From contig CP169074.1 in NCBI GenBank assembly GCA_041891055.1, positions 1,664,001 through 1,728,000 of the forward strand: 64,000 nucleotides of DNA, in the 5' to 3' direction. Of the stretch, positions 7,458-25,795 are shown piece after piece. Source of the stretch: Halorutilales archaeon Cl-col2-1 (GTDB lineage: Archaea; Halobacteriota; Halobacteria; Halobacteriales; Afararchaeaceae). The number at the start of each line of letters is the position of its first letter. The stretch's first letter is position 1. Under the pieces are notes generated by a model that worked only from the letters and a program-made list of their open reading frames with translations, had not been told where the DNA came from and did no database searches. The translations under genes were made by a program, and so were the position numbers.

Positions 7458-7529
7458 GGGCCGGTAGATCAGTGGTAGATCGCTTCCTTCGCAAGGAAGA
7501 GGCCCGGGGTTCAAATCCCCGCCGGTCCA
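7458..7529 (+). tRNA. tRNA-Ala (anticodon CGC); integration target
   Basis: GGGCCGG...CCGGTCC-A acceptor stem with G3:U70, anticodon arm CTTCC-TTCGCAA-GGAAG, GGTTCAAATCC T-loop. Confidence 0.95.
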
Positions 7530-7668
7530 AAACCTATGTTTTGGAGCATTCGAGAAACGTAGTTTCTCGATACGGTCCATACGAATTCTTACGGATTCCT
7601 CGGGAACACAAAACCACCATACAGCGACGGTTTTACCCCTCGCAAATACCTTCCCGTGAAAGTGAGTC
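7517..7668 (+). repeat. Left att direct repeat (tRNA 3' end + ~139 bp)
   Basis: CCCCGCCGGTCCAAAACCTATG...GTGAAAGTGAGTC matches 25644-25795 with 5 mismatches. Confidence 0.93.
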
Positions 7669-7724
7669 TGACTCGTCTCGGAACGGAGGTCTGCTCTTTC
7701 CGGCTTTTATTTTGAGGAACCGAG

Positions 7725-9710
7725 GTGGTCGGCTTGGGTGGTGAGTCTGTTGGGACTAACATAGAGGCTGACGAGAAGATATACTGTGAGGACTGTAGCC
7801 TACATATCGACGCCGAGATCTGGGAGACACACCTCAAAAACAGACATCCCAGAGAATACGATCCCGAGACGTTCGACCTCAACGACTACATAGACCGCAG
7901 TGGCGGAGACGGGGACAACGAAGAAGACGTCGACTCTGGGGCGCGCGCGACATGCCGTAGCTGCGGAGAGACCTTCGAGACCCTCCAGGAAAGAGACGAA
8001 CACGTAAGAGAAAGCCTGAGCTGTACTCTCGAAGAGGGACAGGAAGCGAGAACACCCGATTCTACAGACCTAATCGAGCCCATCACACACGGTCTCGAAG
8101 CAAAGACGGCGTTTGACCACGGAAGCTTAGACGCATACTTCGGTCTCGTCTCAGCGGTCTACGACCTCAGCGACGAGTACCCCGAGCATAAGTCAGAATC
8201 AGGGAAGAGCCAGACTATCGATGTCGACGGAGACATTAACTTCGAGGCTGTCGGTCGTGGGTTCGAGATTACGGCTATCAAGTACTGGTCGAGTCAGCTA
8301 GACCCGAGCAGTATCGGAAGGATAGACTACGACAGGGTCAACGAGTACTCGATACAGTGTACAGAGGTAGACGGACAGGCTGATATCTCTCTCGTGCTAC
8401 GACCAAGCTGGGAGAAGATGGAGTCTCTCGACGGCGAGAGTATAGTTCCCAACGCTGAGACACCTCGTGGTCTCCGTGTACAGATAAATTCGAGCTATCT
8501 CGAACCCGACGAAGTCCTCCCAGCGGCTCGGTCTGTAGCTAAAGCCGTCGACTTTAACTCCAAGTATCTCCAGAAAAAGGATATTCGAAGAGACCTCTCG
8601 ACGTGGACACAGATAGAGAGGCATGTCAGAATTAGGAGAGAGTACTCGGAGAGGATAGTCGGACACGACGGAAAGCTAACCGAGATCTCGAAGTTCTACG
8701 CGTCGAAAGACGAGAGCGTAGGAGAGTACAAATGGGACAATCAGGACGTTCTGGGGCGGATGACCCGTCTCAGTCTTGGTGAAGATGATCTCAGTGACAT
8801 GGTGGATGTCGCGTATCCCGCGAATATCAAATATTACCATCTCAAGAATCCGAGACACTCCGTCCGAGACGCTATTGACCAACCGAAGGTAGAGGTACAG
8901 ATCAAGGGCGACAGTATACCCTGGGAGAGGATCGACGAGGCTCGTGCAGACGCCGATACTATTCTCACGAATACCCTCCGTTGGTCGGGTATTCCGGTTA
9001 ATCCGACCTCTACGGTCTATGTTGACGACGACGAGTTTACCGTCTCTCGAATGGAGTCGGATGAGGTCGAGTTCTACGTCGACCCGTGTGAGGAGATCGA
9101 AGACGCTCAGGAGGAGACTGCGGTAGGAGTCGTCGGTGTTGCCGACGAGATAGAGTTGGAGGCTCTCGAAGAGATCGTAAACAGACACGGATCGGCTTCA
9201 GTCGGAGAAGTTGCGGAGGCTCTCGACAGATCCGTCAGAAGCGTGTATAGATACGTCTCAGACAGGCTTTCGGCAGTTGTCGACCTCGACCAGGGCGAGC
9301 TCTCGATAAGCTCAGACTACCTCTTCGACAGGTTAGACGACCTCTTGGAGAAGGGAGCCAGCGTCTCGTCCGACATAGCCCAGCAGCTACGCAGTGAAAG
9401 AGCCGCAGCCGCGTCTGACTCGGCGTTAGAACGTTTCGCTACTAGATGGGGTATAGAAGGCAATCTAAAGCGCGACGACGAACTCACGGTTCACCAGGAC
9501 AGGATGACGAGATCCGAGGCTAAGGAGCTTCTGCGATCCGCATACAGTGTCTTGGGAGCACGCCGCGGCTACGACGAGGTACTCAGTATTACGTTTAGAT
9601 TCGCGGACGATCCCGATGACTATCTTACATTCGGTAAGTACGGTGAGAGAACCCAGCTTGTGATTCAGAACGACGACTGCCGCATAACGTCAGAGCTGAG
9701 ACCGAGATAA
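7725..9710 (+). CDS. Putative replication protein of haloarchaeal integrative plasmid/virus type, with N-terminal Zn fingers and C-terminal HTH
   Basis: 661-aa acidic ORF; CEDC..H..H and CRSC..H motifs; HTH-like SVGEVAEALDRSVRSVYRY; first gene inside att. Rep role is inferred. Confidence 0.5.
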   Translation: MVGLGGESVGTNIEADEKIYCEDCSLHIDAEIWETHLKNRHPREYDPETFDLNDYIDRSGGDGDNEEDVDSGARATCRSCGETFETLQERDEHVRESLSCTLEEGQEARTPDSTDLIEPITHGLEAKTAFDHGSLDAYFGLVSAVYDLSDEYPEHKSESGKSQTIDVDGDINFEAVGRGFEITAIKYWSSQLDPSSIGRIDYDRVNEYSIQCTEVDGQADISLVLRPSWEKMESLDGESIVPNAETPRGLRVQINSSYLEPDEVLPAARSVAKAVDFNSKYLQKKDIRRDLSTWTQIERHVRIRREYSERIVGHDGKLTEISKFYASKDESVGEYKWDNQDVLGRMTRLSLGEDDLSDMVDVAYPANIKYYHLKNPRHSVRDAIDQPKVEVQIKGDSIPWERIDEARADADTILTNTLRWSGIPVNPTSTVYVDDDEFTVSRMESDEVEFYVDPCEEIEDAQEETAVGVVGVADEIELEALEEIVNRHGSASVGEVAEALDRSVRSVYRYVSDRLSAVVDLDQGELSISSDYLFDRLDDLLEKGASVSSDIAQQLRSERAAAASDSALERFATRWGIEGNLKRDDELTVHQDRMTRSEAKELLRSAYSVLGARRGYDEVLSITFRFADDPDDYLTFGKYGERTQLVIQNDDCRITSELRPR

Positions 9711-10155
9711 TCCGAGATCGGACAGCCTAAGCTTTACTCAGTTTATGTTTTATTTCTGATATATCCATCTAAGAAACGCCATAGGGCGGTATCTTACTGT
9801 TTTCAGCGACTATACCGCGCGACATGAGTAGCTTCTCGATCTTGTGTGTAACTACGTCTACAGAGCTATGCGACGTCTAGATGTTTCGCCAAAATCTGTC
9901 AATATCCCCTTATATGTGTGCGTAAGCGCGCAAAATCAAAACCCGCCGTAGCCTCTTTTTGTCTAAGTGATCCAGTTGATCCACGGGAAATGAGGGTAGT
10001 TAAAGTAGAGATCATACGCTATTTTAATCGGAGACTTGGGAATAACATACATAGGAACGGCTAAGGATTTATTGCTATCTATTGGAGTTCAAAGTTTGAA
10101 AATATATCGGGGGAAGTGAGAATGTATGTAGTTTAACACTCAGAAACTAGGGTAT

Positions 10156-10247
10156 GTACAAATCCTAATCTAAGGCATTATTACTTATTAGATTTGTATT
10201 ATGCTTGTACTATCCTATTTTCAATCCCAGTTAAGCCTTATTCCCTC
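10156..10247 (-). ncRNA. crRNA-like regulatory RNA (pseudo-repeat, 30-nt guide, pseudo-repeat), CreR/CreA-like
   Basis: 10218-10247 matches the array repeat 22/30; second degenerate repeat ~10156-10187; guide seed matches the cas6 promoter beside a CCT PAM. Confidence 0.75.
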
Positions 10248-10323
10248 ATTTCCATATTTCATCTTTCTGATATATATCATTTATCTTAATCAAATATATC
10301 AAATAGGATACATTTCACCTAAC

Positions 10324-10356
10324 TTTTATTAACAAATCTTATGTACTGTCCTAAGG
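10324..10356 (+). promoter_or_regulatory. Putative cas6 operon promoter (TATA-like TTTTATTAA) with guide target 10342-10353 and PAM 10354-10356
   Basis: TATA about 30 nt upstream of GTG 10358; minus strand reads CCT-TAGGACAGTACA. Confidence 0.65.
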
Positions 10357-10357
10357 G

Positions 10358-11099
10358 GTGTTAAGAAATCAGACTATACATTCGATCAGATAGCGGGAAA
10401 AAACCCCGGTTCCAATTGCCCTGGAACTACCACATGTCTTTCCAGAGTTTCATATACCAAGCTCTGGACAAATACGAGCCGGAGATAGCTACCAAACTAC
10501 ATCAATACCCTCATGCACCACCATTCTCGTTCAGCGAATTCATCCAAACCGGTCCTTTTCAGGCTACAGATGATGGGCTAATGTGTGAGAGCGGATATTG
10601 GATCGTCACGTCTGACGATAAGAGAATCATAGACGCTGTGGCTAACCATGCTCAACATGATAGCAAGCTAACTCTCGGACACACAACAATCCCCGTCACT
10701 GGAGTAGATATTGAGAAGATCCAGGGTAAGGAGAAAGAGAGGTACAAGTCTACGAGTCCGATATACGTAAGTCAAAGAGGAGAAGATGGAGAAGTAGAGG
10801 ATCTTTTCCCAGAAGACGGAATGTGGTACTCTCGTCTGAAGGACAGCGTTAGAGATAGGATTCGTCATGAGAGAACTCTCCCAGATGATTTCCAGTTTAT
10901 CATCGATGAAGTCCATTGGTCGAAGAAAAAACGCCTACGTTCGGGAGATGGATGGCGATCCTGTTCTCGACTAGAGTTAACGATCAGATCCGATCTAGAG
11001 ACGAGTGAGTTCATTCAGCAACAAGGGCTCGGAGAAAAAACTGGGATGGGTTTTGGTAATCTCATGCCCACCAATGAAATCCCGGAGGAGTGGCGATGA
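10358..11099 (+). CDS. cas6: CRISPR-associated endoribonuclease Cas6 (N-terminus apparently frameshifted; intact ORF from TTG 10416)
   Basis: LPWNYH, FSFS and C-terminal GLGEKTGMGFG glycine loop. Confidence 0.9.
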
Positions 11100-13009
11100 G
11101 TATTCAAGCAGATATTGAAAAGTTTGAGGAAGGAAAAGAGAAGAAACTTCTCTTCAAGCTCTCCCAAGATGCATTCGTAAATGAGGGGGCGGTCGAAATG
11201 GCGAGGGGTCTTGGGGACTTAGTGGAGATAGAAAGCAACAAGATACTGATTAACTCAGAGGCTTCGAAATCAGAAGTAGCAGAGCGGGTAGAAGATATAT
11301 TAAGAGAAGGATTATCTCAGACACACCGGAGAACTAACGTAGCTCACCAGATTAACGATACTGTTGATGAGAGAGACGAGTTAGATGATAGCCTGAGAGT
11401 AGGTGCACCAAACACACATTTTCCGATGGATTCTGACGAAGATGAGACGGTGTACGAAAATGATACAGTTAATATTGAAGAGCTAAGAAATGTCGGCATA
11501 GATCCATCGGAGATAGATATAGACGAAGGTGATGAAAAGAGCCTCTATACGCTTTCGCCGACATTCGTAGGAAGACCACAGCCGGGAAGATACGGTTTCC
11601 AAGCCTCCCTCGATAACACTGAGGATTACTTTGATATATTTACGAAATACATAGAAGGCGAATATGAAGGATCAGAGGATGACTACTGTACCAACTGTGG
11701 TTCCAGTGGAATACCAAGCTGGCAGGTGGAGGACGAAGAAGGAAATAAAATTAAACTAGAGCACAGCCAAGCATCCTCAATACTGTTAACTAAGTCGAGT
11801 AATCCGTCTCCTCTTGGTCAGGGGTCACCCAAAAGCAGTTATCAAGGTAGATGTGTTTCGTGTCTTATAGCAGGATTCTATTACACGCTGATCGAGAAAG
11901 CAGTTCGTCTCGTAAGTTTCGATGATGGGGGAGAATACCGTATTTTTACTCCAGTAGGTGACTTTGAGGAGTTACGTAATATACGCGGAGATCTGACTAA
12001 CATCTGGGAAAGCGGAGGTGAAGGAGGAAGAACTATTAATGAACCTACATCGAACAGCAAAGCTCGGCAGCAGAATATAGGATCTACAAGAAGTAGATCC
12101 AAGGGGATACAGATACTCGACTTCTTCAGCGAGGTTCTCAGACAGGGTAATATAGATATTGTAGGAGGAGAATACTCTAAAGAGACGATTCACAGACCCA
12201 CTTCTCTAATAACTTATATTACCTCTCCAATGAAGAGTGGCAACTATGTTAGAGAGATAAAGTCGTTTGAAAGTGTGGATTCGGACAGTTGGATATACGA
12301 AGTTGTCCGTGAGAGAGAGTTAGAACCAGAAGGTCAAGAAGATGAAGATTGGGATGAGAGTTACTGGGCTGTACCCGACGTTTTGTCTTGGTTTGCAAAT
12401 ATATCCCAGAATAGCGAGGAAGTTGGAATAGACGAGAAGGATATGATTGGCTACGGGATAATAGAGAAGGATCTAAAACAGATAGAGAGAGGTCTATTCG
12501 AGCTTCTGAAGAAAGTCGAGAAAGAGAAGGGGGAAATAACTCCCTATATGTTACCCATCGCAAAAACAAGAAACTATTTCGGAGATATCATGAGACAATC
12601 AGCAAGCACTGAGAGTATAGACAGTGAACAGATCGAGAGCATCACGAATGTAGCCTCCAACCTTGGGGGGATGTTCTATGACAGGGATAATATAAGCGTG
12701 CTAATATCCCTCCAGAGCTCGAACACTCCCTCCGAGTTTTTACAAGCATTCGAGAAGGCGTCTATGCAGGCTCAAAAGATGATAACTGACGAAGGTGAAG
12801 GAGGAGAGGATGAGGAGTTCCGAAGAAAGGCAATAAACCGCTGGTCGGGAAAAGAAGACATCGAGACTGTTCTTGAATTAATAACAGATCCAGACAAGTT
12901 TGAGGACGCAAAAAGAATGTTCGTTATACAAGCATCGCTGTCGGCACATTACCAGAATAGTGTAAAGAACTACCAAGAGAGCCAGTCAGATACTGGAGGT
13001 GATCAGTAA
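11090..13009 (+). CDS. cas8: Type I large subunit Cas8 (Cst1/CXXC_CXXC-like) with C-terminal small-subunit domain
   Basis: Located between cas6 and cas7; CTNC and CVSC motifs; helical C-terminus. Confidence 0.8.
   Translation: MAMSIQADIEKFEEGKEKKLLFKLSQDAFVNEGAVEMARGLGDLVEIESNKILINSEASKSEVAERVEDILREGLSQTHRRTNVAHQINDTVDERDELDDSLRVGAPNTHFPMDSDEDETVYENDTVNIEELRNVGIDPSEIDIDEGDEKSLYTLSPTFVGRPQPGRYGFQASLDNTEDYFDIFTKYIEGEYEGSEDDYCTNCGSSGIPSWQVEDEEGNKIKLEHSQASSILLTKSSNPSPLGQGSPKSSYQGRCVSCLIAGFYYTLIEKAVRLVSFDDGGEYRIFTPVGDFEELRNIRGDLTNIWESGGEGGRTINEPTSNSKARQQNIGSTRSRSKGIQILDFFSEVLRQGNIDIVGGEYSKETIHRPTSLITYITSPMKSGNYVREIKSFESVDSDSWIYEVVRERELEPEGQEDEDWDESYWAVPDVLSWFANISQNSEEVGIDEKDMIGYGIIEKDLKQIERGLFELLKKVEKEKGEITPYMLPIAKTRNYFGDIMRQSASTESIDSEQIESITNVASNLGGMFYDRDNISVLISLQSSNTPSEFLQAFEKASMQAQKMITDEGEGGEDEEFRRKAINRWSGKEDIETVLELITDPDKFEDAKRMFVIQASLSAHYQNSVKNYQESQSDTGGDQ
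12590..13009 (+). CDS. cas11: Putative internally translated Cas11 small subunit (139 aa)
   Basis: GGAG SD-like motif 5 nt before in-frame ATG (GGAGATATCATG) at the start of the C-terminal domain. Confidence 0.6.
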   Translation: MRQSASTESIDSEQIESITNVASNLGGMFYDRDNISVLISLQSSNTPSEFLQAFEKASMQAQKMITDEGEGGEDEEFRRKAINRWSGKEDIETVLELITDPDKFEDAKRMFVIQASLSAHYQNSVKNYQESQSDTGGDQ

Positions 13010-13947
13010 TGAAAGCAATAGGTATGAACTACCTGACCTATGTAGACCTCGGGAATCATAACGCAGGAGAAGGAGGAAGTCAATTATCCGACCTCAAAAA
13101 GTACGGAAACAAGCCCTACATCAGTGGACAGGCATACCGACACTCAATCAAAGACGCTCTGAAAGCAATAGTCGATGACTTGAGTACTGTAGACTGCACT
13201 CCGAGGAACGCATGTGGGGACATAGAGAACTGCAAGCTGTGTGACCTATTCGGTTACATGAATACTGATCTAGAACCCGATGACGGAGAACCCAATCCAA
13301 ATAGAGTTTCACCGCTTAGGGTTAGTCCTCTAGTTGGGCAGTATGACATGCCGATAACGACAGATCTCGTCGTCCAATACGATGTAGAAGGCGATAATCG
13401 TATGGCACGCCGGGAAATAGAGGAGAACGTATTCAAGGGAGGGATTGCGCTGGATCTAGATTCTATAGGAAGACGAGAGAATGAGGAAGTCAATACAGAC
13501 AGGGACTACGACGAGCAGTATCATCGTGAGCTTGAAAACGAGATAGACGAAGACGAGAGGAAAGAAAGAGCGAAGGAACTCATAGATGCTGTTCAAAACA
13601 GCACACAGCTAGCAGGTCAGGCTCGCCACATGGCAGATTTCATGCCGGATCTTCTGGTAGTCTCAAGCCAAGACCAGTACAACCAGAGAGTAAGCAATGC
13701 ATTACATGTTGACCCCGAATCCGGCGAACTCAACACAAAATCCTTCGAGAGCGTACTCCAAGACCTCACTAATATGGAGTCTGACGGTGAGGGGAAGGTG
13801 TGGGTCGCTGGAACGTATAACCCCGAAGTAATCTCAAACTGGGATGAAGTGATGGAAACCGCCGAAGAAATTGAGGGAGTGACTATTGTTGATACCGTAA
13901 GTGGATGTTATGAGGCGGTAAAAGAAGAAATCGACTCGGAACTATAG
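13009..13947 (+). CDS. cas7: Cas7 (Cst2/DevR family)
   Basis: N.GE, PYISGQAYRH, CDLFGYM and RVSPLRVS motifs. Confidence 0.9.
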   Translation: MKAIGMNYLTYVDLGNHNAGEGGSQLSDLKKYGNKPYISGQAYRHSIKDALKAIVDDLSTVDCTPRNACGDIENCKLCDLFGYMNTDLEPDDGEPNPNRVSPLRVSPLVGQYDMPITTDLVVQYDVEGDNRMARREIEENVFKGGIALDLDSIGRRENEEVNTDRDYDEQYHRELENEIDEDERKERAKELIDAVQNSTQLAGQARHMADFMPDLLVVSSQDQYNQRVSNALHVDPESGELNTKSFESVLQDLTNMESDGEGKVWVAGTYNPEVISNWDEVMETAEEIEGVTIVDTVSGCYEAVKEEIDSEL

Positions 13948-13951
13948 TATA

Positions 13952-14677
13952 ATGACCCAACAGATCCTCCGAGCTACGCTTGACGTACCTTTCGAGTGTG
14001 CATTTAGAGACCCAGACTCGATGAACGCCTTACCTACATACAGTGTTCCACCAGTTACTACACTCCAAGGAATGCTATATGCTGCACTTGCACGTCCTTC
14101 CCTACTTTTCCAGTCAGGTAGAAGCCGGTATATTCCAAAAGACCTGAGAGATGATGAGGAAGAGTTTCGTAGGGAGGTTCAAGACAAGTGTCAGTTTGGC
14201 ATAAGAGTCATAGAACAAGGGAAAGAGTACAACGGTCTGAAGACTCGTCAGAAGATGGAGGATAAAAGAGGGCAAAATGACGCGAGGTATAAAAGCTATG
14301 TGACAAATGAGGAAACTTTGATCGAGCCCACATTTCGGATTTATATAACTGAAAATGGAGGGGAGGAATACCTAGATATATTCAAGCAAGCTCTTGAAGA
14401 TCCTTCTCGAATGCTGTATTTAGGACGCTCAGATGATATAGTAGATGTATGTGATGTTCATCTCATTGAAGCCGAGAAGGTAAACAAAACCAAGAGTCTG
14501 GACTGTGTCGTCCCAAGTGCTGAAGGAGAGCATCTAGAGATGTTGCCCGTGGAGCCAGATCACAGATCCGGTCGTTCTACAAAGCCTCCAAGAGTCAAGG
14601 CAGTTTCAATAGATGGTGCCGAGGTGGGTAGTTATTATCGTACTTCAGATGGGGAAGAGTTTGTATTTATAACTTGA
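13952..14677 (+). CDS. cas5: Cas5
   Basis: AFR.P, TYSVPPVTTLQGML and LYLGRSDD motifs. Confidence 0.92.
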   Translation: MTQQILRATLDVPFECAFRDPDSMNALPTYSVPPVTTLQGMLYAALARPSLLFQSGRSRYIPKDLRDDEEEFRREVQDKCQFGIRVIEQGKEYNGLKTRQKMEDKRGQNDARYKSYVTNEETLIEPTFRIYITENGGEEYLDIFKQALEDPSRMLYLGRSDDIVDVCDVHLIEAEKVNKTKSLDCVVPSAEGEHLEMLPVEPDHRSGRSTKPPRVKAVSIDGAEVGSYYRTSDGEEFVFIT

Positions 14678-14721
14678 TTCTTTTTTAAGTTTTTCTCAGC
14701 TTCCGTCGAAGAGTTGAACTA

Positions 14722-17238: not shown

Positions 17239-17354
17239 CTAGAGTAAGAAATTTATACTAGATAAGTGTTCTTGAAGTATTAGCCTTCAAAGATAGGCTT
17301 TTCTTCGCTAGCCCATGTGGTAATGTAATCTGGTATAAAGGGGCTAGAATCGAA
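17239..17354 (-). promoter_or_regulatory. CRISPR leader
   Basis: AT-rich non-coding segment between the cas2 stop and the first repeat. Confidence 0.7.
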
Positions 17355-18595: not shown

Positions 18596-19089
18596 GCAAA
18601 ACAGAACTCCCTCATACTACATTTTTTACAGGCAGTTTTCCACTCCGGATCTGGACAATCCCCCTCGATAATCTCTCGTATGTTTTTAGTCACCTCATCA
18701 TGTCTTTTCTGGATGTCTTCAGACCAATCCATCTCTTTTTTTGTGCTTTCTTCAGGGTATCTTAGAATACCCACAACTTCAGTTTCTTTTTCCGAGTGGA
18801 GTAAATGCATATAATGAATCAGTTGTATTTCATCAGCATCTTGATACGTAGAGGAGCGTTTGACCTCGTTTATCTCTATTTTGTCCCCCTTGCGTATGAA
18901 ATCTATCTGATTATTTCCGATATTTTTTGTATCTTCTCTCTTGAAGCTATCTGAGTCAAGTAATTCCCCAAGCTTCACGTATTCGTTCTCATCTGCATAA
19001 AGAATCCTATAATGGTGGTACCAGAGCTTAGTTTTACATATTGTATAGTAGTGATAGTGCTGTCCAGTAAGCTCTCTTTCAGATATCAT
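18592..19089 (-). CDS. cas4: Cas4
   Basis: N-terminal Cys, EVK, QL..Y and C-terminal CKKCSMREFC Fe-S motif. Confidence 0.95.
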   Translation of the reverse strand: MISERELTGQHYHYYTICKTKLWYHHYRILYADENEYVKLGELLDSDSFKREDTKNIGNNQIDFIRKGDKIEINEVKRSSTYQDADEIQLIHYMHLLHSEKETEVVGILRYPEESTKKEMDWSEDIQKRHDEVTKNIREIIEGDCPDPEWKTACKKCSMREFCFA

Positions 19090-21579
19090 CTATAGTTGTG
19101 TACTAGATCGAATGTCATCTGGTATTCTTCTTACCTCAGTGTCTGGGGGTATTACCCCATACTCATAACTATACTCTATGTTGATCACCTGAGTTCCTTC
19201 AATTTCACCGTATTCATCCTTAAATCTATGGGGAGGATCGAGAGTTATATCATCACTAACTAACCACCACTTGGGTATAGGGACAGTATATTCTCTGAGA
19301 AAAACGCTCAAGTCCTCTTTACACTCATTGTAATAGTCTTCATGTACTCCACATCTACCATTCCTATCGCAATCATGGAATTCTTTCCATAGGTCACTAG
19401 GTAATGGAGACTCCGAATTGTGATGATATTTGGAAGGCAACATAGAGATACGTCGACTGCTATCCTCACGGATATTCAGATCTTCCGATCCTTCTGTCTC
19501 GTCCTCACCCAACCTTCGTAGCTTTCCATAGAGTAGGTCATTCGAAATAGCATTTCCGAACTGAGTTGTGTTCATATTCATCTTACTTAGATCCACTCCT
19601 GTGTACGATTCTTCTACCCACTTCAGGCTGTCTTTAAAGCTATACATGCCAGCATTCTCGAAGACCTTCTCAGTCTGTTCTAAGATCTTCCACTTCTCTT
19701 TTTCCTCAGGACTTTGATCTTTGTAGCCTGCGTAGGGGTACCACGTATCTGTATCTTCATCCGAAATCGGAGAAAAGACTACACAACGATACTTGTGATT
19801 TTGATCATCCTGTTTGAAGCTTGCACACTGATCACAGTTACAGTCCTCCGAGCTGGGTCTATATCCTTCTCTGTGGAGTCTGCCTGCCCTCTGTATTACT
19901 GCGTCGGCAGGTGCTATATCAGTCAGAAGCAAATCCGCTGAGAGATCGAGACTGATCTCACACACCTGTGTGGATACGAGAAACTGTCTTTCATCCGGAT
20001 TCGAATCTATTCCGAATATATCGCGTATCTCCTCTTCCTTATCTTGCCTATGGTCTTGAGTAAATTCGCTACTATAGTAGGTAACATTCTCACCGTCTTC
20101 CTTTAGATCCCAAGCGAGATCTCTAGCCCCAGATACAGTATTTTTGACTATCATCACCTTCTTCGCGTCACTTTCTTCTAGGTACTCTTGAACTTCGGAG
20201 GTGGTGAGTTCAGAGTTTTCTGTAATAACTTCAAATGCTTCTCTCACTCCCTGATCTTCTTCGAGTATCCCTTCACTCCGGACTTTCTCTGAGCCATCGA
20301 AAGCTCGGTCATTCTGTAGTTGTTGAGGCATGGTGGCGGTCATAACATACCAAGGCACACCAAGATCATCGAGTCTTCTTATCGTCGAAAGTATATGACC
20401 CGTGGTATATGCATCGTAGGCATGTATCTCATCAAATATAACTGCACTTCGTAACACGTTGCCCTTTGCTATGCTTGCCGTTTTGTATCCATTCACAAGA
20501 GAAGAGAGTAGATGGTCAACAGTACAGACTGTCACAGGCTTCTGGAACCATTTTCTTGCTTCTTCACCAAGGTTCTCTGATTTCCAGACCTGTTCTCCGG
20601 TACTTTCGAGGAAACTCTTATCCGCACCGTGGTATAGTGCTGCTTTGCTAGCTTCAATTTCCTCGTCTCCCTTGGTCATTGAAAGCAGAAGATTATTCGT
20701 AGTCACCTGGGTTGGCATCGCAAATATCATTCTGTCTGCTTTCTCTTCTTCTATCATCTTCTGCCCCCACTGGAACGCTGTGTGGGTTTTTCCTTCACCA
20801 CATCCGGCAAGCCCCAAGAGATGATCTGTATCAGTCTCTTCTATTTCTTTTTGGAAAGGTCGGAGTGATGAGAATAGATCTATATCGTCGGAATAGAGAG
20901 TCTCAAACTGGGTTTTTGGGTCTCCGGATTCCTTCGAGCTAACATAATGGTCAGCTTGGACTAAAGCGGAGTGTAAAAGAGTGGAGAGAATACCCACTTC
21001 CAGATAATCAGACTCTGATAGCTCCTTCTTTCGGTACTCACGTAACTGGGATTTAAGGCTTTTTTTCAGGTTAGTATCTATTTCAGTTTCCGGAAGACCG
21101 ATACTCCCGACGTTATCCACCATTTTTTGAGTCCCAGATATAGAATAGAGTCTACTGTTTTCTGGTCTCATTTTGCCCATCGTGAATGGGGTATGGTGAT
21201 GAAGAATAGCAAGAGTTAGAGAAACCCCTTGGTTTATAGGAAGACCTTCATCTCTAGCTTTTGCGAATGCGTAAATCCCACTTCTATCGCTATGAGTGGG
21301 TAAATTTGGTTTCTTGTCTTGTCTTACTGCATTTTTAGCTTCAGACTGCCATTCTTCATGAGCTTTCCCGACATCGTGGTAGAGTCCAGCTAACTCCCCG
21401 CAGTCTAGGATGTCACCGAAATCGGTTTCAAGTTCCCTCGCTATTCTTTTAACAGCATGTGAGTTGAGTATAGATCTCGTTTCCTTCGATACTTCTTCTA
21501 AATGAGTTTTAAGAGTTACTTGGTCGGAGATGGACTTCGAACGATCTAGTTTAGCTATGAGAGGCTGCATCCTCTTCAA
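19090..21579 (-). CDS. cas3: Cas3 HD nuclease-helicase
   Basis: HDVGK, HH, ADH, GEGKT, DEIH, TAT and QRAGRLHR motifs; start may be ATG 21570. Confidence 0.96.
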   Translation of the reverse strand: MKRMQPLIAKLDRSKSISDQVTLKTHLEEVSKETRSILNSHAVKRIARELETDFGDILDCGELAGLYHDVGKAHEEWQSEAKNAVRQDKKPNLPTHSDRSGIYAFAKARDEGLPINQGVSLTLAILHHHTPFTMGKMRPENSRLYSISGTQKMVDNVGSIGLPETEIDTNLKKSLKSQLREYRKKELSESDYLEVGILSTLLHSALVQADHYVSSKESGDPKTQFETLYSDDIDLFSSLRPFQKEIEETDTDHLLGLAGCGEGKTHTAFQWGQKMIEEEKADRMIFAMPTQVTTNNLLLSMTKGDEEIEASKAALYHGADKSFLESTGEQVWKSENLGEEARKWFQKPVTVCTVDHLLSSLVNGYKTASIAKGNVLRSAVIFDEIHAYDAYTTGHILSTIRRLDDLGVPWYVMTATMPQQLQNDRAFDGSEKVRSEGILEEDQGVREAFEVITENSELTTSEVQEYLEESDAKKVMIVKNTVSGARDLAWDLKEDGENVTYYSSEFTQDHRQDKEEEIRDIFGIDSNPDERQFLVSTQVCEISLDLSADLLLTDIAPADAVIQRAGRLHREGYRPSSEDCNCDQCASFKQDDQNHKYRCVVFSPISDEDTDTWYPYAGYKDQSPEEKEKWKILEQTEKVFENAGMYSFKDSLKWVEESYTGVDLSKMNMNTTQFGNAISNDLLYGKLRRLGEDETEGSEDLNIREDSSRRISMLPSKYHHNSESPLPSDLWKEFHDCDRNGRCGVHEDYYNECKEDLSVFLREYTVPIPKWWLVSDDITLDPPHRFKDEYGEIEGTQVINIEYSYEYGVIPPDTEVRRIPDDIRSSTQL

Positions 21580-21649
21580 ATATATTAACTATCTGTCTTT
21601 AAATATTCATCTCCGAAAAGGATTATATGGATCAAAGATTGGTTCTATT

Positions 21650-21729
21650 AGTATAATAGTGCCTAGGTTGGATTGAAATACGAGATGCCCGTGCAGATAG
21701 CTCGACAGAAGGTATTGGCTTCTTTTTCC
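21650..21729 (+). ncRNA. Solitary degenerate CRISPR repeat plus ~40-nt spacer-like segment and T-rich end, divergent from cas3
   Basis: 21650-21679 matches the repeat 24/30 with intact GGATTGAAAT; BRE/TATA-like CGAAAAGGATTATAT upstream; TTCTTTTTCC downstream. Confidence 0.65.
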
Positions 21730-21830
21730 TGACTTCTTCTTCAAGCTCGATTAACCCAACCTTTTCTAACTCAGTACATCGTGATAGGTCGTAACAACAA
21801 TTTCTCTGGCTCTATTAGTGATTCTTAACT
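21700..21830 (-). pseudogene. Possible eroded HVO_A0114-like wHTH fragment
   Basis: Minus-strand frame TELEKVGLIELEEEVRKKKP, interrupted upstream; family resemblance recalled, not searched. Confidence 0.3.
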
Positions 21831-21952
21831 AGCCGATTTTCCTGTAAATTCGGGTAGAAGACCTTGAATATACTCCATATAGACATTAATTCACACTCTC
21901 AATCCATGGTACTATCCGGAAGTTCAAAGTAAAAACGGGTATAACGATAACT

Positions 21953-22567
21953 ATGGCTGAAGTCTGGATGACAGAGGATGAGATACAGGATCTCGAACTC
22001 CAAGCCGATAAGCTCAGAGATAGACTCATAATACAGCTTGGTGCTTACAGCGGTATGAGAATTGGCGAGATTGTAAACCTCCAAGTATCCGACCTAAACC
22101 AGGACACTGTTGATGGAGAACTGAGATACTTCGCGAAGGTTGAGGGGAAGAAGACCGATCAAGAAGCCGAAGGTAAGACAGAGACGAAGACCCGTGACGC
22201 TTGGATAACCCAGGATACCTGGAAAGACCTACAGACCCACATAAACCAGGAGAATCTCACTAATGACGACTATATCATGAACTCCAGATACGGAGGGAAG
22301 ATACACAAAGACAGCGCGAGGAAAATAGTAAAAAGAATTGCTGAGAAAGCCTACGAGCAGACTGAAAAAGAGAAATTCCTTGATGTGAGTAGCCATGACC
22401 TACGACGCTTTTTTGCCCATCATCTGGCTGAAGAAAAGGGTGTTAATATACGTGTAGTTATGGATCTTGGTGGCTGGGAAGATCTACAGACATTTGTGAG
22501 GCACTACTTGGATAAACCAAGTAAGATGACTAAAGCCCAAGAGCTCGATAATGCAGGCTGGAGTTAA
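21953..22567 (+). CDS. Short tyrosine recombinase (catalytic domain only)
   Basis: GMRIGE, HDLRR and LGGW...HY catalytic motifs. Confidence 0.9.
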   Translation: MAEVWMTEDEIQDLELQADKLRDRLIIQLGAYSGMRIGEIVNLQVSDLNQDTVDGELRYFAKVEGKKTDQEAEGKTETKTRDAWITQDTWKDLQTHINQENLTNDDYIMNSRYGGKIHKDSARKIVKRIAEKAYEQTEKEKFLDVSSHDLRRFFAHHLAEEKGVNIRVVMDLGGWEDLQTFVRHYLDKPSKMTKAQELDNAGWS

Positions 22568-22880
22568 GACCCGACAATAGCACGCTCATACTTTCTACTA
22601 CCACCAATATAACTAATTAGCCATTCACGTCTCCTAATTTTGAAAGTACCGAGATCCTTAATTCGTTAATTCCGGACAGCTCAGGGGAATTAGTATTACG
22701 CGATACGAGCGAGGATGTATCCATATGAAGACGTAGATGGATTACTATTAGACAACCTACTTCTGTCGAATAGGAAATATCCCATTTACCCGCCGCTTGA
22801 TGGCATATTTCTAAAACCGCTGTAAGGCGTTGGGTTAATGGACAAGTTAAGTATCTTGAGTACGTGTATAGATTTGTAAA

Positions 22881-23216
22881 ATGACCGTACTGAACTGTAA
22901 TAGCTGTGGTCACGGCTGGAACTACTCCGGAGGTCTTACTGACTACACGACATGTCCTAATTGTGGACATTCAGTAAAGATTCCTTCGGCAGATAGTTCC
23001 AATTTTAAAGCAGAAGACGTCGAAGAGGAAATGGGATCGTTCGAAGAACGTCTCGACCGGTTAGAAGAGACGTTAACGAAGGTACAAGATGACCTCATTA
23101 CTATCGAGGAGAAGATATCAGATAGAGACAAAGCCTCTTCTAAAACCGAGACTGACGAGAAGAGCAACGAGGGAGGTCTATCTCCCTATGACCCTACGAT
23201 GGAATTTGAATTTTAA
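22881..23216 (+). CDS. Zn-ribbon/coiled-coil small protein
   Basis: CNSCGHGW...CPNCG followed by a heptad-like segment. Confidence 0.7.
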   Translation: MTVLNCNSCGHGWNYSGGLTDYTTCPNCGHSVKIPSADSSNFKAEDVEEEMGSFEERLDRLEETLTKVQDDLITIEEKISDRDKASSKTETDEKSNEGGLSPYDPTMEFEF

Positions 23217-23239: not shown

Positions 23240-24154
23240 TCACTTCTCGACGTTCTCGACTTCCTCTTGAGTCAAAAGATCCTCGATGTCCATCTTTTCC
23301 TCTATGTCCTCTGTGTCCGGGATCTCGGAAATTCTCTCTTCTTCGTCTTCTGAGTCGTCAGATAGATCCATATCTATCACTTCTACGTTCTTTAGGAAAA
23401 CAGCATCCTCCCACGGTCGAAGTAGGTACGCTCCGGTACCTGCTACAGTGAGATAGGCTATACCGTCTAAGTCGCCTTCTTTCTTTTCGAATTTCCACTC
23501 TGTATTCTCCGGTAAATCTGGAAGACGTGTACTGAACCTACCAAGCTCTTTTTCGACCAAAGGTACGGCGAATTTACTATTTAACTCCGCGGTTAGAAGT
23601 GCGTAAGAAGAGTTCTCGAATATTCCCATGTCGAACTCCACAGTGGCTAAATGTCCATGTGCCTCGTTCTTTTTCTCTACCTTATCCGAAAATCTCTCTT
23701 CAGGAGGCAGTTCATCGAGGTCTTCCTCTTCGTATGATATGACGTTTATCAGCCTCGTCATTTTAAAATCGTCACCAACAACTACGAAATATGCCTTATC
23801 GCCCGAGGTCAGTTTCTCTCCGTCGTGGGTATAGACACACGACATGTCTTTTACTCCTCCGACCAGACGCCCTTCCCAGTATTCCTTGACTAATCTACGT
23901 GCTCTTTCTTCATCTGATAACTCTTGGTTGGGCTCTGTCTCTATGCCTACAACATAGTATGCTGTGGCATTACTGACCTTTACCGAGTCTATCTTCTCCC
24001 CCTTAGACAACTCTTTAAGACGGTTCTTTGCCGTAGTCTTGCTAACACCTGTATGCTCCGCTATCTGGGACGCCGTCCATACCGGACGGCTTCCGCTTTT
24101 CATGAGGGTCAAGACCTCCTCTTTCGTCAACTCCCTGTCTCTTCCGCGTGACAC
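23240..24154 (-). CDS. Winged-HTH domain protein (putative element regulator)
   Basis: N-terminal WTASQIAEHTGVSKTTAKNRLKEL HTH; divergent from the integrase. Confidence 0.7.
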   Translation of the reverse strand: MSRGRDRELTKEEVLTLMKSGSRPVWTASQIAEHTGVSKTTAKNRLKELSKGEKIDSVKVSNATAYYVVGIETEPNQELSDEERARRLVKEYWEGRLVGGVKDMSCVYTHDGEKLTSGDKAYFVVVGDDFKMTRLINVISYEEEDLDELPPEERFSDKVEKKNEAHGHLATVEFDMGIFENSSYALLTAELNSKFAVPLVEKELGRFSTRLPDLPENTEWKFEKKEGDLDGIAYLTVAGTGAYLLRPWEDAVFLKNVEVIDMDLSDDSEDEEERISEIPDTEDIEEKMDIEDLLTQEEVENVEK

Positions 24155-24462
24155 TATTGGCTATTCAATGCCTGTTAACTTAGCTTTTCTGTTCGAACTG
24201 AAACCCCGTTTCAGACATAAAGTTTAAGTCAAGGGATCTCATTAGTAACACTCAGGATGACATAACAAACACAGTGGTAATATCGCGGGAAAAGCTACCT
24301 GACCCCCAGATGCCCACGCCCTACCAAAGCACGGCATCTTTCGAGGGTCGGTGAAATACCCCATCAGAAGGGGTTGTATAGATACACCCATATTTAGAAC
24401 CTCGACCAATTAATGGTTTGGGTTACTCTACTCCTTCTGATGGGTCGTCTAAGACGACCACA

Positions 24463-24594
24463 ATGAAAAACGAAATACGAAACCAGAAACCGACAGAAGG
24501 CGAAAAGAGAACTAACAGAAACGGACGACGGGTACGAATACCTCTCACCTCAGAGATAGCCGGGACAGTGGAAGGGGTGGTTCCGGATGAGTGA
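24463..24594 (+). CDS. Small 43-aa ORF overlapping the integrase start
   Basis: MKNEIRNQKPTEGEKRTNRNGRRVRIPLTSEIAGTVEGVVPDE; overlaps the integrase ATG. Confidence 0.35.
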   Translation: MKNEIRNQKPTEGEKRTNRNGRRVRIPLTSEIAGTVEGVVPDE

Positions 24595-25603
24595 ACTACA
24601 GCCTCTCGAACCTGAGGAAGGGGTTGAGATGTATCTTGATACCCGAGAGGACGAGCTCAGTAGGGAGACGTTACGGAAACAGAAGACGCGTCTCGATGCT
24701 TTTCTGAGCTGGTGTGAGGACAGAGGTATAGAGAACCTCAACGAACTGACCGGCAGAGATCTCCAGCGGTACCGACAGTGGCGCAAGAAGGGCAAGGGGG
24801 ACGGATACGGTAAGGTCAAAAACGTCACACTAAGGTCTAATCTCACTACACTCCGAGTTTTCCTCGAACACTGTGCGAATATCGATGGTGTCGAGAAGGG
24901 GATGCGAGAACGTGTTATGCTTCCTGAGGTGGAGGATGGAACGAAGGACAGTAAGATAGCCGAAGAACGTGTTAGGGATATACTCGATAAACTCGAAACC
25001 TACGAGTACGCGTCTCGTAGGCACGTGATGATATCCCTGATGTGGCACGGTGCTCTACGTATCGGGACTATACGTGCTCTCGACGTCGGTGACTTCGATC
25101 CCGATGAGCCCTGTCTGAAGATACGCCACCGTCCAAGCACAGACACACCCCTCAAGAACCGTGAAAGTGCAGAACGAGATCTTGCTCTCGGTGACTTCTA
25201 CGCTCAGGTTATAGAGGACTACATCGAGGAGAACCGCCATGATGTCCAGGATGACTACGGAAGGCATCCTCTCATAACAAGTACAGAAGGAAGGCTGACA
25301 AAGACTCCATACAGAACTGCGGCGTATAGGGTCTCACTTCCGTGTTGGACAGATGACTGTCCACATGGCAAGCAGCGAAAGACGTGTGAATGGACGAGCC
25401 GCGATAAGCTTAGTCACTGTCCTAGTTCGAAGTCTCCTCACGACTTCCGACGCTCGTCTATCACATACCATCTCAAAGAGAACGTTCCTCCGGAGATAGT
25501 CTCAGACCGTGTCGACGCTACTCCTGACGTAATTGAGAAGCACTACGACAAGAGGAACGAACGCGAGAAGATGCGGACGAGGAAGGAGCTCCTAAACTTA
25601 TGA
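24587..25603 (+). CDS. Tyrosine integrase (haloarchaeal SNJ2-like)
   Basis: ALRIG, TPLKN, CPHG..C..CPSSKSPHDFRR and KHYD motifs; adjacent to att. Confidence 0.93.
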   Translation: MSELQPLEPEEGVEMYLDTREDELSRETLRKQKTRLDAFLSWCEDRGIENLNELTGRDLQRYRQWRKKGKGDGYGKVKNVTLRSNLTTLRVFLEHCANIDGVEKGMRERVMLPEVEDGTKDSKIAEERVRDILDKLETYEYASRRHVMISLMWHGALRIGTIRALDVGDFDPDEPCLKIRHRPSTDTPLKNRESAERDLALGDFYAQVIEDYIEENRHDVQDDYGRHPLITSTEGRLTKTPYRTAAYRVSLPCWTDDCPHGKQRKTCEWTSRDKLSHCPSSKSPHDFRRSSITYHLKENVPPEIVSDRVDATPDVIEKHYDKRNEREKMRTRKELLNL

Positions 25604-25643
25604 GTCGGAACGCGGTCATACACAATACGGTTATAGTCACGCC

Positions 25644-25795
25644 CCCCGCCGGTCCAAAACCTATGTTTTGGAGCATTCGAGAAACGTAGTTTCTCGATAC
25701 GGTCCATACGAATTCTTACGGATTCTTCGGGAACACAAAACCACCATACAGCGACGGCTCCACCCCTCGAAAATACCTTCCCGTGAAAGTGAGTC
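25644..25795 (+). repeat. Right att direct repeat
   Basis: Copy of 7517-7668 (147/152 identical). Confidence 0.93.

Follow-up and report, generated by a model that had tools for sequence, protein, structure and literature searches.

Background

Two kinds of known system come closest to the locus described here. The one is the temperate betapleolipovirus SNJ2, together with the SNJ2-type integrated elements of haloarchaea; for SNJ2 it is reported that excision joins the integrase gene int and the gene rep into a replication operon, formed only after circularisation (Wang et al. 2026, PMC13107129); the same report presents SNJ2 ORF19 as an experimentally validated rolling-circle initiator of the Rep-Arvir family, and the essential SNJ2 hairpin as one with a TAAG loop. 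Two SNJ2-type elements reduced to Rep and Int were also noted by Wang et al. 2018 (PMC5861418). [quoted passage not shown]

In this study a window of 64,000 nt from the genome of the small, salt-loving Halorutilales archaeon Cl-col2-1 was analysed, in which the cell's only CRISPR-Cas system rides on a virus-derived element of 18 kb, while the corresponding frame in a sister species bears another defence system.

Anatomy of the element

The element consists of 18,282 bp of low-GC DNA between 155-nt direct repeats, in the tRNA-Ala(CGC) gene of the archaeon. Its features are as follows, in window coordinates.

7458..7529, + strand: tRNA-Ala (anticodon CGC), the integration target (ARAGORN; final 13 nt inside attL)
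7517..7671, + strand: attL, left copy of the 155-nt direct repeat (repeat search; two short hairpins right after the tRNA end)
7725..9710, + strand: Rep-Arvir (DUF7845) rolling-circle initiator, 661 aa (Pfam PF25227, E 6.5e-62; phrog_3288, E 5e-68)
9711..9997, + strand: putative origin region, also conserved in G001, the sister species (96.5% identical)
9998..22782, no strand: cargo slot, 12,785 bp, wholly different in the sister species (homology to G001 ends at 9997 and restarts at 22783)
10148..10247, - strand: two degenerate repeat-like units with a spacer of ~30 nt, upstream of cas6 (8-mismatch repeat at 10218-10247; second unit by eye)
10416-11099, + strand: cas6 (Pfam)
11090-13009, + strand: large-subunit ORF, Cas8b-like (no profile match)
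13009-13947, + strand: cas7, Cst2/DevR (Pfam)
13952-14677, + strand: cas5 (Pfam)
14722..17238, - strand (presumed): CRISPR array with 38 exact 30-nt repeats (0 expected in 100 shuffles), which enclose 37 spacers, 29 of them distinct
17239-17354: array leader
17355-17618, - strand: cas2 (Pfam)
17615-18595, - strand: cas1, cas1b (Pfam; NCBIfam TIGR03641 cas1_HMARI, 366 bits against a cut-off of 304)
18592-19089, - strand: cas4 (Pfam)
19090-21579, - strand: cas3, HD and helicase (Pfam)
21650..21679, + strand: single degenerate repeat with 6 mismatches, oriented opposite to the array and 71 nt upstream of cas3
21953..22567, + strand: cargo gene for a short tyrosine recombinase of 204 aa that comprises just the catalytic domain (Pfam PF00589, E 2.3e-22)
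22881..23216, + strand: ORF of 111 aa with Zn-ribbon and acidic/coiled-coil-like parts, conserved frame (translation; weak FmdB zinc-ribbon match; kept in G001)
23240..24154, - strand: protein of 304 aa with N-terminal wHTH, conserved frame (Pfam HTH_11, E 1e-5; divergent from int)
24587..25603, + strand: tyrosine integrase of the SNJ2 family, 338 aa (matches IntSNJ2 with 45% identity over 339 aa, E 8e-108)
25644..25798, + strand: attR, right copy of the direct repeat (begins 40 nt past the int stop codon)

The two repeat copies agree at 149 of 155 positions (96%); as read from the sequences, they are identical over the first 82 nt and all 6 mismatches lie downstream, and the 2.06-Mb genome has 2 copies only. 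Over 10-24 kb the GC content is 39-47%, whereas the flanks have 58-61%, a drop of 12-20 points. The att repeats, Rep, I-B locus, 37 spacers, short recombinase, wHTH protein and integrase named in a first-pass annotation were all recovered where it had placed them, and where it put the CRISPR cargo at about two thirds of the element, the measured share of cas genes plus array (10416-21579) is 61%. It had recognised no virion or conjugation genes either, and indeed Pfam and PHROGs gave 0 matches to such families in the element; a tblastn search of the complete genome with 25 SNJ2 proteins gave no virion gene, with 0 matches in the genome for VP12, VP13 and the NTPase. We call the frame attL, Rep-Arvir with its hairpin origin, the Zn-ribbon ORF, the wHTH regulator, the IntSNJ2-family integrase and attR.

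The protein annotated earlier as a putative Rep belongs to the Rep-Arvir/DUF7845 family, and its gene is the sole DUF7845 gene in the genome. It carries a Zn-finger-like N-terminal extension. Over 450 aa it is 24% identical to SNJ2 ORF19, and its Y371xxK374 aligns with the catalytic Y283xxK286. A hairpin with a 6-bp stem and a TAAG loop (9917-9932) stands 207 nt past the rep stop codon, and such a TAAG-loop hairpin lies 169-207 nt past the stop codon in 18 of 30 DUF7845 ORFs, against 0/30 upstream and 2/30 on the reverse complement as controls. The origin region shows no DNA-level alignment with the SNJ2 origin, and its fold energy is overall unremarkable (z -1.18). The integrase, whose SNJ2-like nature is borne out by the identity given above, has 12 matches in the phage collection, all 12 being haloarchaeal viruses. 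It is encoded on the same strand as rep, which starts 53 nt after attL. Neither the 111-aa Zn-ribbon ORF nor the 304-aa wHTH protein is similar to SNJ2 Orf2 or Orf3, respectively, and the genome has no homologue of Orf2 or Orf3, on which efficient integration of SNJ2 depends.

The cargo holds a complete type I-B set of eight cas genes for interference and adaptation, according to Pfam and NCBIfam; for the block from cas6 to cas5, TIGR02585 reached 104 bits against a cut-off of 72.75, and TIGR01877 also matched. The genome encodes no Cas1 other than that of the element. The large subunit has 9 relatives only, each at the equivalent position in cas loci, and next to the nearest of them (34-51% identity) adaptation genes are mostly missing, which would fit a link to the provirus I-B clade. 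We infer that the array is read on the - strand because of an 8-nt handle-like repeat end and its position beside cas2, and therefore the repeats would end in ATTGAAAT. Spacers 27 and 28 have overlapping protospacers as their source (20/21 nt identical). Mapping of the spacers to viruses versus plasmids, proposed with the first annotation, yielded no target for the 29 distinct spacers. The degenerate units at 10148-10247 may be a decayed mini-array or a gene for a cr-like RNA. As for the short recombinase, its NCBIfam matches are weak, of Xer/invertase type and every one below cut-off; a paralogue (84% aa) adjoins other defence-like genes.

The frame in a sister species and in other genomes

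In the sister species (G001) this tRNA bears an equivalent frame, with 92-98% identity (92% nt over the wHTH ORF, 23240-24154) as compared with 93-98% for the host flanks. The G001 genome matches window positions 3675-9997 and 22783-25715 with nothing between, and Logan contigs of two metagenome runs give the same cargo borders. The slot of G001 is filled by a BREX-like set, namely BrxHII (E 3.6e-181), a methylase of PglX/type IIG-like character and an HNH protein, along with a recombinase of 200 aa that is 36% identical to the short recombinase here. Cas1 was not found in G001 (98% complete) and its frame is without cas genes, so the lineage does not keep the cas locus as a fixed occupant of this site, a fixity which had been named earlier as speaking against an excisable cassette. 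The slot is exchangeable between defence systems. Since frame and flanks are equally diverged, the frame may therefore predate the species split, and the cargo alone may have been exchanged. Beside attR, G001 also has a second integrase piece (79% nt), and the genome of Cl-col2-1 itself keeps a scar of the left end of the element behind tRNA-Ala(GGC); this remnant and the scar at another tRNA-Ala mean that integration took place repeatedly in the lineage.

Among 401 genomes of the order, DUF7845 is present in 138 and Cas1 in 122, and the two lie <=30 kb apart in 5. At a tRNA-Pro of G005, which belongs to another family, repeats of ~157 nt occur with an SNJ2-type Int, a Rep, a short recombinase, arrays and all eight cas genes of a canonical I-B system, and no virion genes were found in this element; it is clearly a second case of a CRISPR-carrying replicon. 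G202, again of another family, is probably the third case: next to its tRNA-Val stands a Rep, and it also has a cas1 and, at a distance of 35 kb, an SNJ2-type Int.

A probable mobile replicon and rival readings

Setting out from the observed anatomy, family memberships, cargo difference and recurrence elsewhere, we regard the element as probably an integrated, virion-less replicon of SNJ2 type (betapleolipovirus-related) with an exchangeable CRISPR slot and an SNJ2-like way of working. By analogy with SNJ2, Int would recombine the repeats and release a circle, in which int, attP and rep would stand head to tail and rep would be expressed; Rep would nick the TAAG hairpin for rolling-circle replication of the circle, which could then re-enter a tRNA-Ala gene. 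In the resident stage the cas genes would gain spacers and destroy matching invaders, so as to protect both host and element. Of the earlier suggestion of an excisable, possibly self-replicating immunity cassette, the anatomy stands, with attL-Rep...Int-attR in the SNJ2 order, while excision and replication are likely on the strength of that analogy. Repeats far longer than the 14-bp core of SNJ2, with their 6 mismatches, count against this reading, and so do a frame no less diverged than the flanks, the lack of Orf2 and Orf3 homologues, the origin region with its unremarkable fold energy and no alignment to that of SNJ2, the lack of close Rep relatives in IMG/VR and JGI metagenome contigs, and spacers for which no target was found. 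In the assembled contigs of four metagenome runs with related DNA, no attP junction, circular form or empty site was found, which also speaks against it.

A possible, though rather doubtful, alternative is a domesticated immobile remnant: an SNJ2-type element would have entered tRNA-Ala in the common ancestor and stayed, the whole unit would no longer excise, and its arms would form a fixed landing pad (defence hotspot) where cargo is swapped by homologous recombination with relatives or by the cargo recombinase. A frame no less diverged than the flanks is the pattern expected of a vertically inherited, resident and perhaps immobile frame, and the identical site and cargo borders in both species, the att copies differing at 6/155 positions and the lack of Orf2/Orf3-type accessory genes point the same way, as does the failure to find episomal relatives; no episomal or viral copy is known, since neither IMG/VR nor the JGI metagenome contigs yielded a close Rep relative. 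However, int, rep and the origin hairpin are all intact, and so is the initial 82-nt stretch of each repeat; the second integrase remnant in G001 and the tRNA-Ala(GGC) scar tell of repeated integration, and the near-identical architecture met in other families, where it occupies different tRNAs, speaks for a mobile type.

It is improbable that the element is a pleolipovirus satellite, which would have kept the integration and replication module of a betapleolipovirus but lost the virion module, spread inside the membrane vesicle-like virions of a helper and turned CRISPR-Cas on competitors. The genome holds no helper provirus (0 matches to SNJ2 structural proteins), no packaging- or structural-like gene is kept, IMG/VR yielded no related sequence and known pleolipoviruses are matched by no spacer, although virion genes are absent as such a satellite would have it, the nearest characterised relatives of Int and Rep are in betapleolipoviruses and a lemon-shaped virus, and plasmid-like elements have been proposed as satellites of haloarchaeal spindle viruses (bioRxiv 10.1101/2025.02.15.638363). 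Least credible of all is an ordinary chromosomal CRISPR-Cas locus lying by chance between unrelated mobile-element fragments. Integrase and Rep fragments abound in haloarchaeal chromosomes, and some chance proximity is expected because of the above frequencies of DUF7845 and Cas1, but a 155-nt repeat starting in the tRNA links both ends, the cas block has the low GC of the element and not that of the chromosome, the sister species has no such block within its copy of the frame, and the ordered set recurs in G005 with repeats of its own.

Comparison with known systems

The element resembles SNJ2 in its target, the 3' end of a tRNA gene, in having int and rep at opposite ends on the same strand, so that they would be joined in the circle, in its integrase (45% identical), and in a DUF7845/Rep-Arvir Rep that has the catalytic motif and whose gene is followed by a TAAG-loop hairpin. 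It differs in lacking virion genes and homologues of Orf2/Orf3 and orf20-25, in att repeats of 155 nt against 14 bp, in a Rep only 24% identical, in an origin region that is not alignable, and in that about two thirds of it is defence cargo.

With the provirus-encoded I-B systems, as described in PMC12596717, it shares cas genes and arrays on an integrated haloarchaeal mobile element, a cas module that seems mobile between unrelated elements, and the role of only CRISPR-Cas system in some hosts. By that description cas1, cas2 and cas4 are missing from those systems, and the proviruses that carry them have structural genes, whereas here a full adaptation module is carried by a minimal virion-less replicon. 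CRISPR-Cas loci on plasmids or islands, such as haloarchaeal megaplasmids, are alike in placing a complete I-B system outside the chromosomal replicon. The nearest Cas1 (56%) is that of the Halorussus lipolyticus plasmid NZ_CP119807, which also encodes a related large subunit (36%), and there too interference and adaptation genes converge on the array; however, the plasmid is a 103-kb episome whose locus has no Rep-Arvir/IntSNJ2 frame, and its cas3 goes with the interference operon, while that of the element goes with cas4-cas1-cas2. A conserved integration/replication frame with a variable slot for different whole defence systems in close relatives is also a feature of P4-like and PICI-type hotspots and of Vibrio type I-F islands, but these bacterial islands and phage satellites have unrelated proteins and bacterial hosts, and the likeness is in logic only. 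The present element belongs with kinds already known, the reduced SNJ2-type elements and the provirus-borne I-B systems.

An element with conserved ends in the tRNA-Ala(CGC) gene

An element of 18,282 bp occupies tRNA-Ala(CGC), the sole tRNA gene of the window, and is bounded by two copies of a 155-nt direct repeat found nowhere else in the 2,064,627-bp, four-contig genome (G000). Compared by eye, the copies are identical at positions 1-82 and then show 6 mismatches. GC content is 39-52% within the element versus 58-61% in the flanks, whose genes are chromosomal.

Features of the element and its flanks (coordinates in the window)
Left flank: genes for histidinol dehydrogenase, EF-1alpha and ribosomal protein S10
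7458-7529: tRNA-Ala(CGC)
7517-7671: attL, 96% identical to attR, starting 13 nt before the 3' end of the tRNA gene
7725-9710, + strand: DUF7845 protein (Rep), 661 aa
10416-14677, + strand: cas6, a 639-aa large-subunit candidate, cas7 (Cst2/DevR type), cas5
14722-17238: CRISPR array, 38 identical 30-nt repeats (0 expected in 100 shuffles)
17355-21579, - strand: cas2, cas1b, cas4, fused HD-helicase cas3
21953-22567: short tyrosine recombinase, 204 aa, catalytic domain only, in the variable part
22881-23216: Zn-ribbon ORF, 111 aa, in the frame
23240-24154, - strand: protein with N-terminal winged helix (wHTH), 304 aa, in the frame
24587-25603, + strand: IntSNJ2-like integrase, 338 aa
25644-25798: attR
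Right flank: genes for a GNAT acetyltransferase, an HPP protein, a globin and, farther out, an AN1-rhomboid protein

All the parts named by the first-pass annotation are thus present between the repeats: the putative Rep (here the DUF7845 protein), the type I-B cas genes, 37 spacers, the short recombinase, the wHTH regulator and the SNJ2-like integrase. Judged by its genes, the element is an integrated replicon of the type of SNJ2, a temperate betapleolipovirus, carrying immunity cargo. Below, the frame means its conserved ends (att repeats, Rep, origin, Zn-ribbon ORF, wHTH gene and integrase), and the cargo slot means positions 9998-22782.

Gene order was compared with that in other families. 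Among the matches listed in a noisy tblastx comparison, no fewer than 14 of 28 EF-1alpha/S10/tRNA-Ala loci have an AN1-rhomboid homologue at a distance of up to 1.5 kb. Here the gene, at 30758-31639, is separated from the tRNA by 23 kb; compared with the common order, the element and about 5 kb of further genes are therefore additional.

The sister species carries the same frame with other cargo

The family holds one other genome, that of a sister species (G001, 98% complete), which was the one available for an empty-site comparison within the family. One of its contigs, C1, aligns with window 3675-9997 (95% identity) and a 3.5-kb contig with window 22783-25715 (92-98%), while the slot between has no match in this genome except a 60-nt stretch, and no Cas1 was found there. 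The first-pass annotation had reasoned that a cas locus fixed at this site across the lineage would speak against a mobile immunity cassette; the same frame without a detectable Cas1 shows that it is not fixed. The difference between the elements of the two species is the cargo.

Nucleotide identity between the window and G001
Host left flank: 96.2%
rep: 95.2%
Origin region: 96.5%
Zn-ribbon/wHTH arm: 92.1%
int: 98.3%
Host right flank: 93-96%

Content of the cargo slot in G001
Tyrosine recombinase, 200 aa, 36% identical to the short recombinase of the window
HNH protein
Helicase, 969 aa, matching BrxHII end to end (E 3.6e-181)
Two ORFs without assignment
PglX/type IIG-like methylase, C-terminal part, cut by the contig end

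Since the frame is about as similar between the species as the host flanks are, either its age is roughly that of their split or the two species have exchanged it. The slot of G001 holds, by these matches, a BREX-like set. Logan contigs of two metagenome runs (X1 and X2) diverge from the window at the same two borders as G001, and these runs, with a G001-like frame and other cargo, may represent its source sample.

The site has further traces in both genomes. G001 has two integrase copies for the site, on its contigs C81 and C95 (loci L035 and L037): one is 98% identical to that of the window, and the second, a 3' piece with 79% identity, is the immediate neighbour of attR and the GNAT gene. 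Its attL lacks repeat positions from about 14 to 71, which are present in all other copies, and it has no HPP gene (window 26598-27104). In G000, a scar of the left end of the element, about 200 nt behind the other tRNA-Ala gene, tRNA-Ala(GGC), is 90% identical over 102 nt (G000:C1:362529-362905; locus L103, 2034-2470); it includes the Zn-finger start of rep, and host genes follow directly. The second integrase piece and this scar both point to elements of this type having integrated repeatedly.

Integration and replication genes

The integrase aligns with IntSNJ2 over its full length (45% identity over 339 aa, E 8e-108). Read by eye, the Cys-rich insertion and the R...HxxR...Y residues of the IntSNJ2 type are in place, the blocks CPH...CE...CPSS.SPHD.R and HYD.RN being aligned; the roles of these residues follow PMC5861418. 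Insertion in a tRNA gene, with the att repeat close behind the 3' end of int, is likewise as expected of this integrase type. Its 12 hits in the phage collection all belong to viruses of haloarchaea, led by HHPV4 and SNJ2. No similarity was found to SNJ2 Orf2 (coiled-coil) or Orf3 (MarR-like), which in SNJ2 form an operon with int and are needed for integration, such partners being present only in some elements according to PMC5861418. The gene upstream of int is divergent in orientation, and the Zn-ribbon and wHTH ORFs could be analogues of Orf2 and Orf3.

Rep matches Pfam DUF7845 with E 6.5e-62 (210 bits against a cut-off of 27) and SNJ2 ORF19 with 24% identity over 450 residues, its Y371xxK374 lying opposite the catalytic Y283xxK286, and is a predicted rolling-circle initiator of the Rep-Arvir family. 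ORF19 and a hairpin 176-197 nt downstream suffice for replication of SNJ2 (PMC13107129). In the element, a hairpin with a 6-bp stem and a TAAG loop, which the essential SNJ2 hairpin also has, is found at 9917-9932, 207 nt past the rep stop (about 180-200 nt expected). In a sample of 30 DUF7845 ORFs from the order, 18 are followed by such a TAAG-loop hairpin (stem of at least 5 bp) at 169-207 nt past the stop, compared with 0/30 in the upstream control and 2/30 in the reverse-complement control. Apart from the hairpin, the origin region does not align with that of SNJ2, and its folding energy is not unusual (z -1.18). No close relatives of Rep were found in JGI metagenome contigs or IMG/VR.

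The gap between attL and the start of rep is 53 nt, and 40 nt separate the end of int from attR. Because the two genes lie at opposite ends and both on the + strand, in an excised circle int would be followed by a single repeat and then by rep in the same direction. This is the arrangement of SNJ2, whose int...rep replication operon forms only upon excision and circularisation of the provirus (PMC13107129). Four metagenome runs contain related DNA (shares 0.47, 0.46, 0.21 and about 0), and in one of them (X3) near-identical pieces occur at 3-6x depth. Over 6800-26700, their assembled contigs include no joint between 7.5 kb and 25.8 kb in either sense. The proposal of an excisable immunity cassette is partly supported: the element is an integrated replicon with immunity cargo, and by analogy with SNJ2 the whole unit may still be mobile today.

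The first-pass annotation recognised no virion genes, and this was borne out: Pfam and PHROGs gave no virion families, the core set of Pleolipoviridae (spike, internal membrane protein, NTPase) included, and tblastn of SNJ2 VP12, VP13, orf14-16 and NTPase gave no match in the whole genome. Very divergent virion proteins might escape such searches, yet no unassigned ORF of fitting size remains in the element. Two SNJ2-type elements reduced to the replication gene and the integration module were already noted by Wang et al. 2018 (PMC5861418).

The CRISPR-Cas cargo

The cas set is assigned to type I-B by Cas1b (TIGR03641, 366 bits, cut-off 304) and Cas7 (TIGR02585, 104 bits, cut-off 72.75). Core and HD domains of Cas3 were found; Cas4, Cas2 and Cas6 score above their cut-offs and Cas5 below the subtype cut-offs. 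This Cas1 is the sole one in the genome, and the array is the sole one with its repeat.

The 639-aa ORF between cas6 and cas7 has no match in Pfam, PHROGs, PADLOC or NCBIfam, including the Cas8b family models, and we take it by position as a candidate for a divergent large subunit. Its relatives number 9 in 5.8 billion proteins (best 51% identity), all at the same position in similar loci. Four loci came from a scan of 185,579 species genomes (two in Natronococcus jeotgali, one in Natronorubrum sp., one in a Halobacteria MAG) and five from metagenome contigs, with none in IMG/VR. By tblastn, Cas1, Cas2 and Cas4 of the element have no match at any of the nine loci, several of which lie on short contigs; two continue into a primase-polymerase gene. 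The locus of Natronorubrum sp. FCH18a (L086, chromosome 2509033-2530763) has a related cas6-cas8-cas7-cas5-cas3 operon accompanied by a primase-polymerase gene and by two arrays of opposite orientation, with no adaptation genes. It is bounded by direct repeats of about 97 nt (89% identical, 14.6 kb apart), with a tRNA-Ala(GGC) a few kb off, and may be another mobile CRISPR cassette.

The array holds 37 spacers of 36-39 nt, 29 of them distinct. On the - strand its repeat ends in ATTGAAAT, and cas2 adjoins through a leader-like gap of 116 nt, which we take to mean that reading of the array begins at its cas2 end; this would place the duplicated spacers in its older half. These duplications (window 14752-15862) comprise an ABAB pattern, one spacer five times in a row and another three times, in units 100% identical, and may have arisen when repeats recombined or during assembly. 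Between the final 21 nt of spacer 27 and the initial 21 nt of spacer 28 (window 16499-16601), 20 of 21 positions agree; the protospacers of the two thus overlap, a sign that one target, or two variants of it, was sampled repeatedly. Neighbouring spacers showed no signal of similarity in general.

As for targets, the whole array has no match in 50,697 phage records and 72,556 plasmids. The best match of the 29 distinct spacers to their own genome is 24/38 nt, and the 26-nt ends of two of them gave none in IMG/VR. Three partial matches in 401 genomes of the order (27/29 and 28/31 nt), two of them in a KaiC-like gene, miss the handle-proximal end and were read as chance or distant homology.

Degenerate repeat-like units lie upstream of cas6 (two, at 10148-10247, with a spacer of about 30 nt between) and upstream of cas3 (one, at 21650-21679), the latter inverse to the array. 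They look like remains of flanking arrays, as in the Natronorubrum locus, or could be genes of cr-like regulatory RNAs; comparison of the ψ-spacers with promoters gave a single 10-mer, at chance level. In the gap between cas3 and the short recombinase, 60 nt (21717-21776) match G000:C1:1047392-1047451 and a contig of G001 at 85%, probably a gene fragment, the former copy lying within a wHTH gene of the HVO_A0114 family.

Recurrence in other genomes

Among 401 genomes sampled from the order, 138 have a DUF7845 protein and 122 a Cas1. Judged by coordinates among the matches listed, which leave out 32 of those to DUF7845, the two lie within 30 kb of each other in at least 5 genomes, G000 included, where our own rough estimate by hand would expect about 1 by chance. 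For recurrence, the ordered architecture counts for more than these counts.

A clear, independent second case is the element of genome G005 (G005:C1:2410237-2432039; loci L113 and L114). Located at tRNA-Pro between direct repeats of about 157 nt, 21.8 kb apart, one of which overlaps the beginning of the gene that heads the rep operon, it carries an integrase of the SNJ2 type, all eight canonical I-B cas genes, arrays, a 629-aa DUF7845 Rep and a short recombinase of 193 aa, 305 nt from the rep stop. No virion genes were found in it, and none of the 20 genomes compared is a close relative of G005 that might offer an empty site. Three further genomes combine some of the same parts. G202 (C1:1562841-1599658) has a Rep next to tRNA-Val, a cas1 and, 35 kb off and with the same polarity, an integrase of the SNJ2 type; no repeats of 35 nt or more were found. 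In G331 (C10:79732-101999), tRNA-Thr, Rep and a full cas operon stand in a row, with no SNJ2-type integrase within 60 kb. G279, a doubtful case, has a DUF7845 protein and a Cas1 within 30 kb of each other.

How the cargo may be exchanged

All three defence-carrying elements examined (G000, G001 and G005) have the short recombinase, its 3' end facing either the origin or a border of the slot, 215-305 nt away, and the cargo orientation of G000 is opposite to that of G001 and G005. Within 1.5 kb of 28 other Rep-Arvir loci it occurs once, namely in G005, and is absent at the remaining 27. This association with cargo suggests that the cassettes travel with their own recombinase; on the other side, no convincing repeats were found at the borders. 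The best inverted repeat there scores 20 against a shuffled mean of 14.8, a score reached by 4.6% of 500 shuffles, and a palindrome across the joined arms, spotted by eye, was unsupported on testing. It is also possible that the recombinase acts in multimer resolution, or that the cargo is swapped by plain homologous exchange between the conserved arms. The frame may even be resident and only the cargo move, a reading to be set beside the likeness of frame and host-flank identity on the one hand and the signs of repeated integration on the other.

A paralogue of the short recombinase, 84% identical, lies in another low-GC patch of the genome (G000:C1:1292300-1312299, locus L102). Its neighbours are a 1146-aa helicase with an MZB domain and DruE-like matches, a 978-aa STAND-type NTPase, a DDE transposase and a pentapeptide-repeat ion-channel protein, and the patch is probably another defence islet.

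Implications and comparison with known systems

The sole adaptive immune system of a small-genome haloarchaeon is thus located on a compact, potentially self-replicating integrative element, and the presence or absence of CRISPR in a lineage may follow the traffic of such elements rather than descent. The two sister species present a natural cargo swap: a slot bordered identically in both holds a different whole defence system in each. Such hotspot logic is familiar from bacterial islands and satellites, and to our knowledge it is little documented in archaea. A broader proposal, speculative and rather unlikely as a whole, is that archaea have, in the Rep-Arvir/IntSNJ2 elements, a class of vehicles for whole immune systems, which would be inserted, inverted or exchanged as cassettes, in a slot just past the origin, by the short recombinase travelling with them. 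In its favour are the distribution of this recombinase and the 84%-identical paralogue next to a third set of defence-like genes.

In the literature searched, we found neither a virion-less Rep-Arvir/IntSNJ2 element with a complete CRISPR-Cas system nor a swap from CRISPR to BREX in one slot; the supplements of PMC13107129 (DUF7845 contexts) and PMC5861418 may list such elements. With integrase, Rep, origin and CRISPR-Cas in 18 kb, the element could serve haloarchaeal genetics as a portable immunity module or as the frame of a vector; a shuttle vector has already been made from the SNJ2 replicon (PMC13107129).

With regard to known systems, G000 and G005, the two clear cases, have att repeats of about 155 nt versus 14 bp in SNJ2, and such long repeats could be produced by scars of earlier integrations, like that behind tRNA-Ala(GGC). 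The nearest Cas1 (56%) is on a plasmid of Halorussus lipolyticus, where, as in the element, a related interference operon and adaptation genes converge on the array; cas3 is among the interference genes on that plasmid, whereas in the element it is beside cas4, cas1 and cas2. The loci of the large-subunit relatives resemble, by description, the adaptation-less provirus-borne I-B systems of Naki and Gophna 2025 (PMC12596717), from which the element differs in having cas1, cas2 and cas4 all present and intact. The element is a link between adaptation-less proviral I-B systems and complete mobile ones.
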